In this document: piece by piece, positions 35,296 to 35,604 of the stretch
Position numbering within the stretch: position 1 is the first letter of the stretch
Layout: every line of letters begins with the position of its first letter
IMG/VR virus record: IMGVR_UViG_2597489889_000001
Coordinates: 51 to 64,050 of that record
From: a virus
Taxonomy: Duplodnaviria > Caudoviricetes
Strand: one strand, 5' to 3'
Length of the DNA stretch: 64,000 bases
Translations under genes and position numbers: made by a program
The notes under the pieces: model-generated
Told to the model about the DNA's origin: nothing
The model's input: the letters and a program-made list of their open reading frames with translations, nothing else
Databases searched by the model: none

Positions 35296-35538
35296 ATACA
35301 GATCCTCCTTTTCATAGTTGGTTTCGGCGCCCGAGCTGCGCCAAATACAAAAGTCGGATTTGGCGCTGCATCGATTCTTGCCATAATTTTGCCCGTTGGA
35401 TATGTGGCGTAATATGGCAAGAAAGCTGTCTAATACTAGGTCGGGCTATCCCGGTTTTACAGGCCCTCCCACGCACTTCCTTTCTCATTAGTTTTAGACA
35501 GTGATTGGTTGGAAGCCAATGAACACGTAGTCTTTAGG

Positions 35539-35604
35539 CTACTCAAGCCCATACTGCTGCATCATCGGGGTGTGGGAGGACAGGTCTGAAGTGTTTTTAC
35601 TCAT
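35539..35604 (-). pseudogene. mutS: Orphaned 5' end of mutS (18 native codons, then 3 phage-side codons and a stop)
   Basis: Hand translation [29 protein letters not shown] is the conserved MutS N-terminal motif; location next to the tailocin locus matches the known mutS-cinA site. Confidence 0.88.

Follow-up and report, generated by a model that had tools for sequence, protein, structure and literature searches.

How does a bacterium fare when a phage has integrated among the opening codons of its mismatch-repair gene, mutS? This question is raised by a window of 64,000 nucleotides (the whole stretch of DNA analysed here, G000:C1:1347235-1411234) that lies in a single-contig, 6.3-Mb genome, the genus of which is Pseudomonas according to phage and genome matches. 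A sequence-only reading of the window had placed a prophage within a conserved eight-residue motif of mutS. It had further proposed that mismatch repair either depends on phage-supplied expression signals or is lost, and that the prophage could be kept as an excision-controlled mutator switch. The precedent that it cited is real: in hundreds of Beta- and Gammaproteobacteria, Chu et al. 2017 (mBio 8:e02045-16, PMC5296598) described elements that occupy the HTPMMQQ-coding part of mutS, and these mutS-targeting elements supply the gene with a new start and upstream region (PMC5296598).

mutS is split at a conserved motif and rebuilt with a new start

The native beginning of mutS is stranded on the minus strand at the right-hand edge of the prophage. 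Read from position 35604 to 35539, it encodes 18 MutS residues, then GLE and a stop codon, exactly as had been read from the letters beforehand. The 18 residues, which run to QQY, and ~170 nt upstream of them have 81–95% DNA identity with the intact mutS start region of relatives; on its upstream side, this native upstream region is bounded by a terminator-like hairpin (35766-35751). The counterpart of the orphan start continues uninterrupted into mutS in 24 of the 26 relative loci that contain the motif. Among the best 29 flank matches in other species, 24 have such an uninterrupted native start, two break at QQY into GLE as the present prophage does, and the remaining three have the flank separated from the mutS motif by 40.7, 42.5 and 4.9 kb. 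Because relatives display empty sites, we regard the mutS remnant as the scar of an insertion; the notion that it is a chance ORF or a duplication was rejected.

Two observations on the flank may be recorded here. In G179 (C116:3583-8611), the native flank lies ~4.9 kb from the mutS motif, which points to a remnant or else to an element of very small size. In the present genome, a zeta-toxin-like P-loop kinase (35957-36499, minus strand; PF06414, E 1.4e-22) is encoded immediately upstream of the region that holds the putative native mutS promoter; it had no PADLOC match.

The remainder of mutS was found where the sequence-only reading had predicted it, directly left of position 1 of the window (G000:C1:1344605-1347184, minus strand; L001:1489-4068), resuming at QQYW behind a replacement ATG. 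This ATG opens an in-frame, full-length gene of 859 codons, as in the elements of Chu et al. The residues MTDLSS stand in for 10 native N-terminal residues, making the N-terminus of MutS four residues shorter than the native one. It is the only mutS in the genome, and it adjoins int: it scores 1283.5 bits against TIGR01070 (mutS1; cut-off, 641.7 bits), covers profile positions 1–839 of 840 and has no internal stop. The motifs are present as well: HTPMMQQY (residue 7), GDFYE for mismatch binding (residue 31), Walker A (residue 613) and Walker B (residue 688).

Could the insertion nonetheless have inactivated mutS, leaving the strain a constitutive mutator? The native start has indeed been separated from its gene. 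Against this stand the uninterrupted, full-length reading frame of mutS, which has an ATG of its own and the complete set of motifs, and an architecture that is kept across many species. Moreover, codon differences to three orthologues were overwhelmingly synonymous (124 synonymous vs. 3 non-synonymous, 147 vs. 4, and 145 vs. 8), which, as a pattern of substitution, indicates that mutS is under strong purifying selection. Inactivation is thus scarcely credible. Since mutS is full length, has its motifs and is under purifying selection, we conclude that mismatch repair has not been lost, contrary to one arm of the earlier proposal; mutL, too, is intact elsewhere in the same genome. Judging from its frame and motifs, the rebuilt MutS is most likely functional.

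Table 1. Features of the prophage and of the stranded mutS start, in window coordinates.
Feature	Position	Strand	Basis or remark
Lambdoid prophage body	1..35551	.	Gene content and att cores
Tyrosine integrase (int), 329 aa	2..991	-	PF00589; directed towards mutS, stop codon 51 nt from the element-supplied ATG
Excisionase (xis), 64 aa	1001..1195	-	phrog_4764, profile 4-64/80; DUF4224; 64-aa homologues likewise placed in related elements
CI-type repressor	4550..5326	-	phrog_4; HTH_3 and Peptidase_S24; heads the leftward side to xis, int and mutS
First deletion: TerS N-terminal piece abutting nuclease-only TerL	16424..17741	+	Profile matches
Second deletion: head-tail connector cut at ~77-89 residues, joined near tape-measure start	21042..21491	+	
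Cargo ORF, 348 aa	34249..35295	-	Between endolysin and right att end
Predicted arm-type repeat TATTAGACAG	35426..35435	-	+140 from motif start; same offset in phiAH14a attP, L008 and L022
Predicted arm-type repeat, inverted (TTTTAGACAG on plus strand)	35492..35501	+	+74 from motif start
Orphaned native mutS start	35539..35604	-	18 native residues, then GLE and stop out of phage DNA
Right-end att core ATGATGCAGCAGTA	35552..35565	-	Identical to core beside int
Native mutS upstream region	35605..35770	-	Conserved upstream of intact mutS in relatives; putative promoter

Attachment sites and the phage origin of the new start

Alignment of the two ends of the prophage defines a 14-bp core, ATGATGCAGCAGTA, that is identical at both. 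Its left copy lies at G000:C1:1347144-1347157, 77–90 bp left of window position 1, and the element measures 35,642 bp from core to core. At both ends the core encodes MMQQY, which bears out the placement of the insertion within the conserved motif; the neighbouring HTP codons are similar, not identical, and the breakpoint in mutS coincides with the 3' edge of the core. A third core within the window, which would be a sign of tandem prophages, was sought and not found.

Where does the replacement start come from? The closest guide is phage phiAH14a (KU708004), the Int of which is identical to ours at 313 of 329 positions (95%) with no gaps. Its published description states that mitomycin C induced this phage and that it was packaged (Dziewit and Radlinska 2016, PMC4936722). 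Its record begins beside attP (L002:1-260), which contains a mutS-like ORF of 32 codons. From the int stop codon, the order is TATTAGACAG, AAATAGACAGG, the ATG of the mutS-like ORF, its stop codon and further repeats. The phage and the present element thus share an attP made up of two arm repeats, a mutS-like ORF, the core and two more arm repeats; unlike the present element, phiAH14a is a complete, inducible phage of 55 kb. A megablast comparison of window positions 1-25000 with phiAH14a revealed no DNA similarity outside int and xis. The mutS-like ORF is absent from the annotation of the phiAH14a record, and PMC4936722 mentions neither mutS nor attP or other att sites.

A second case is the P. 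aeruginosa phage F_TK1718sp/PAK, with an Int that is 55% identical; just after int, it encodes ...DIAQHTPMMQQ followed by a stop. The mutS mimic is therefore present in two isolated phages, and because both carry a mutS-like start in attP, we conclude that the replacement start is of phage origin. The N-termini that related elements supply are variable (MTDLSS, MESLSS, MDLSS, MSSLSD, MSDLSA and MDVSA) and differ also at synonymous positions, and they always restore ...HTPMMQQYW. Such variable N-termini leading into a constant junction fit the view that phages are selected for leaving MutS in working order.

Repeats of the form (A/T)(A/T)TAGAC(A/G) flank the motif at -68, -46, +74 (inverted) and +140 from its start. 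Their offsets are identical in the attP of phiAH14a, in the split ends of the present prophage and in the right ends of elements in two other species. We predict that these four repeats are arm-type binding sites for Int.

How regularly do such integrases lie beside mutS? Among 400 other genomes of the genus, 11 encode an Int at least 59% identical to ours, and in all 11 it lies upstream of mutS on the same strand. Likewise, in 16 of 17 named loci with an Int alignment, Int is followed by full-length mutS; Azotobacter beijerinckii is included, and the named relatives include P. lactis, P. fungipugnans, P. parakoreensis and Antarctic Pseudomonas isolates. The integrases adjacent to mutS in these two sets span 58–97% identity, and the present one, 51 nt from the gene, lies well within ~300 bp of it. 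These tallies count in three unpublished genomes (G099, G150 and G370), on which we base nothing more specific. Overall, the association of Int with mutS was seen at ~55% Int identity and above. No frame coding for HTPMMQQ was present in the two record ends examined of Bordetella phage PHB09 (Int 43% identical) or within 3.5 kb in a Rhodocyclaceae MAG (Int 42%).

At least two copies of a sequence coding for the eight-residue motif occur in 15 of the 400 genomes, a rough figure for which the cases were partly checked. In G251, three motif copies (contigs C10, C34 and C35) all end in TAT and may represent several elements or free attP. In G174 (L039:2500-3036), a truncated second integrase-like ORF of 178 aa, starting MEALPKCVYFKHGSYYLV, lies between int and mutS; successive occupation of the site seems to happen, since this ORF is probably a relic of an earlier element.

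Decay of the prophage and its predicted excision

The prophage has a lambda-like gene order. The minus strand carries int, xis, early-left genes and CI (HTH plus S24 peptidase), and the plus strand carries an antirepressor, a replication initiator, DnaC- and DnaB-like proteins and Q, followed by a J-like fragment, holin, Rz and HNH and then by head, tail and lysis genes. An ORF of 330 aa (13715-14707, plus strand), oddly located after the Q antiterminator and before holin, gave partial matches to phrog_18217, phrog_496 and phrog_31 (tail fibre/J).

Two deletions have left the virion and packaging module of this lambdoid temperate phage incomplete. At the first, the small terminase matches only positions 1–70 of its 162-position profile (Terminase_2, 1–57 of 141), its C-terminal half being absent, and the large terminase matches phrog_9 at 336–673 of 812, retaining TerL_nuclease only; the ATPase domain is lost. 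At the second, the connector matches Ad1 through residues 1–89 only (Phage_connect_1, 1–74 of 101), and the tape-measure protein matches its profile at 18–1116 of 1123, beginning at residue 35 of the ORF at 21211-24597. Profile searches of the prophage found no neck, tail-terminator, tail-tube or chaperone genes after the junction of connector and tape measure. On this gene content, the prophage is defective and cannot produce virions on its own.

The recombination genes have fared better. Int aligns without gaps to that of phiAH14a, the excisionase covers most of its profile, and Int, Xis and the CI, which is of an SOS-cleavable type, all look intact. The sequence-only reading was sound on the following points: it had held that the phage cannot package, that int and xis look intact, and that the integrase points in the same direction as mutS with the remainder of the gene adjoining the int end.

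What would excision do to mutS? We modelled attB and attP by joining in a script the host-side halves and the phage-side halves, respectively. The modelled attP is colinear with that of phiAH14a. The modelled attB gives an in-frame native mutS that aligns as one gap-free block with the empty sites of six species (93.5–95% identity). Since it is gap-free and in frame, we predict no frameshift scar; upon excision, mutS would regain its native start in frame, and the prophage may still be able to excise.

This outcome bears directly on the proposed mutator switch. In Vibrio splendidus 12B01, and only there, excision leaves a 2-bp scar and results in hypermutation (PMC5296598). By analogy, the present prophage, defective in other respects with int and xis intact, might have been retained for a frameshifting excision. 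A crossover anywhere in the 14-bp core, however, would yield an in-frame attB with no gap relative to the six empty sites, and thus, in silico, no frameshifting deletion of the 12B01 type. Excision is scarless in E. coli 536, B. multivorans CF2 and P. putida F1 (PMC5296598), and scarring is possibly specific to 12B01 (Chu et al.). The survival of int and xis beside two deletions is, moreover, equally predicted by recent random decay. We therefore judge an excision-scar switch very improbable. Recombination at the core, as modelled, restores mutS without an indel, as is the case for the scarless product of P. putida F1, and the sequence gives no indication of a mutator switch.

The reading that we favour, with a probability of roughly 0.88, is that a lambdoid phage integrated in the mutS motif and supplied a new 5' end, that mutS remained whole, and that the prophage later decayed. 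On this reading, a temperate lambdoid phage of fluorescent pseudomonads integrated by site-specific, tyrosine-recombinase-mediated recombination in the 14-bp core, which lies within the codons for HTPMMQQY, a conserved motif of MutS. Its attP carries, on the side of the core that faces int, a short mutS-like ORF, an ATG plus 13 further codons, and integration turned this ORF into the new 5' end of mutS, leaving the native promoter and first 18 codons 35.6 kb away. Excision would restore the native start in frame. Such an arrangement gives the phage access to a site of extreme conservation and yet does not turn the host into a mutator. The terminase ATPase and the neck and tail-tube genes were lost afterwards, leaving a defective resident that may still excise.

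Expression of mutS in the lysogen and relation to known elements

If mutS is rebuilt by integration, what transcribes it? The suggestion that the gene depends on expression signals from the phage is borne out for the start codon only; our scans identified no promoter. A search for sigma-70-like promoters in the int-mutS region and in window positions 1-6500 returned nothing usable before mutS at the scan threshold. In the 51-nt spacer that precedes the element-supplied ATG, there is no clear Shine-Dalgarno sequence, and folding of the spacer RNA gave no significant structure (z = -0.37). No terminator-like site was detected on the minus strand from the early-left genes through int to mutS; hence, phage transcripts may read through into mutS. 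The distance between int and mutS is taken up by 0.6–2.2 kb of unrelated DNA in six related elements, and a 60-bp block before the ATG, which resembles arm-type Int sites, is kept. Because the spacing varies while the block is conserved, coupling of mutS to int appears not to be obligatory.

These observations must be weighed against the idea that the prophage is a switch of mutS expression. Under this idea, mutS would be intact in either state; the lysogen copy would be driven by a weak constitutive signal on the phage side or by read-through of the CI operon via xis and int, and MutS dosage and mutation rate would differ among lysogenic, SOS-induced and cured cells. The minus strand leading to mutS, free of terminator-like sites and of significant RNA structure, would allow this, as would the S24 autocleavage domain of CI, and Chu et al. 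2017 (PMC5296598) raise the possibility for scarless-excising elements. Conversely, the six related elements with their variable spacing argue against obligatory coupling, and purifying selection on mutS speaks for the keeping of the protein only, not of its level. We consider an expression switch conceivable but doubtful.

At the opposite end of the prophage, the 348-aa cargo ORF is the first gene downstream of the stranded mutS promoter and start, ~240 nt away on the same strand, with no terminator-like site between the orphan start and the ORF. It belongs to no Pfam, PHROG or PADLOC family, matching DUF3800 only below threshold (E 0.037). Since the gene found here differs among related elements, the position seems to be a variable slot for morons. 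An elaborate form of the expression hypothesis would tie both ends together: mutS would have become the last gene of a leftward, CI-controlled operon, with MutS dosage tracking the SOS/repressor state, the native promoter would drive the DUF3800-like ORF, Int/Xis excision would flip both, and the prophage would be kept for such rewiring. This we hold to be decidedly improbable.

In its anatomy, the present prophage is a member of the mutS-targeting class of Chu et al. 2017, which was already known in Pseudomonas. Table S2 of PMC5296598 names P. putida F1, P. fluorescens WH6, P. synxantha BG33R, P. chlororaphis O6, sp. GM84 and others, members of the P. fluorescens group included. Our element shares with this class the motif of insertion, a stranded start of host type upstream, a start supplied by the element, a full-length mutS and an adjoining tyrosine integrase. 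The prophage-type elements of Pseudomonas are ~40 kb in size, like the present prophage of 35.6 kb; the present copy differs in being a defective prophage. With respect to scars, V. splendidus 12B01 has its 2-bp scar, whereas none is predicted for our element, which in this resembles P. putida F1. The mutS-cinA region of such bacteria is, in addition, a known site of tailocin and prophage clusters (Mavrodi et al. 2009).

Other elements offer instructive comparisons. SpyCIM1 of Streptococcus pyogenes, a phage-like island at mutL, is likewise an integrase-bearing mobile element that borders a mismatch-repair gene at its 5' end, and it has been discussed as a switch. When integrated, it blocks expression of mismatch repair, and excision restores it. 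The present element, by contrast, rebuilds mutS while integrated; because the repair gene is rebuilt in that state, integration itself leaves mutS unbroken. The same holds in relation to phages of the comK type: there, as with SpyCIM1, the target gene is non-functional when the element is integrated, and here mutS is intact. Phage 21 and e14 integrate in icd of E. coli and carry a substitute 3' end, such that the gene stays functional. They replace the 3' end of icd, whereas the present phage replaces the 5' end of mutS; because it is the 5' end that is exchanged, the start codon and transcription signals are replaced too.

Beyond annotation, the importance of this locus is small. To the published picture it adds a mutS-like start within the attP of two isolated phages, phiAH14a and F_TK1718sp/PAK, a compact attP with four putative arm-type repeats at fixed offsets, and a decayed member of the class that retains int, xis and a cleavable repressor. 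For the organism itself, the consequence is that mutS should not be annotated as a pseudogene or as truncated, and the strain should not be presumed to be a mutator.
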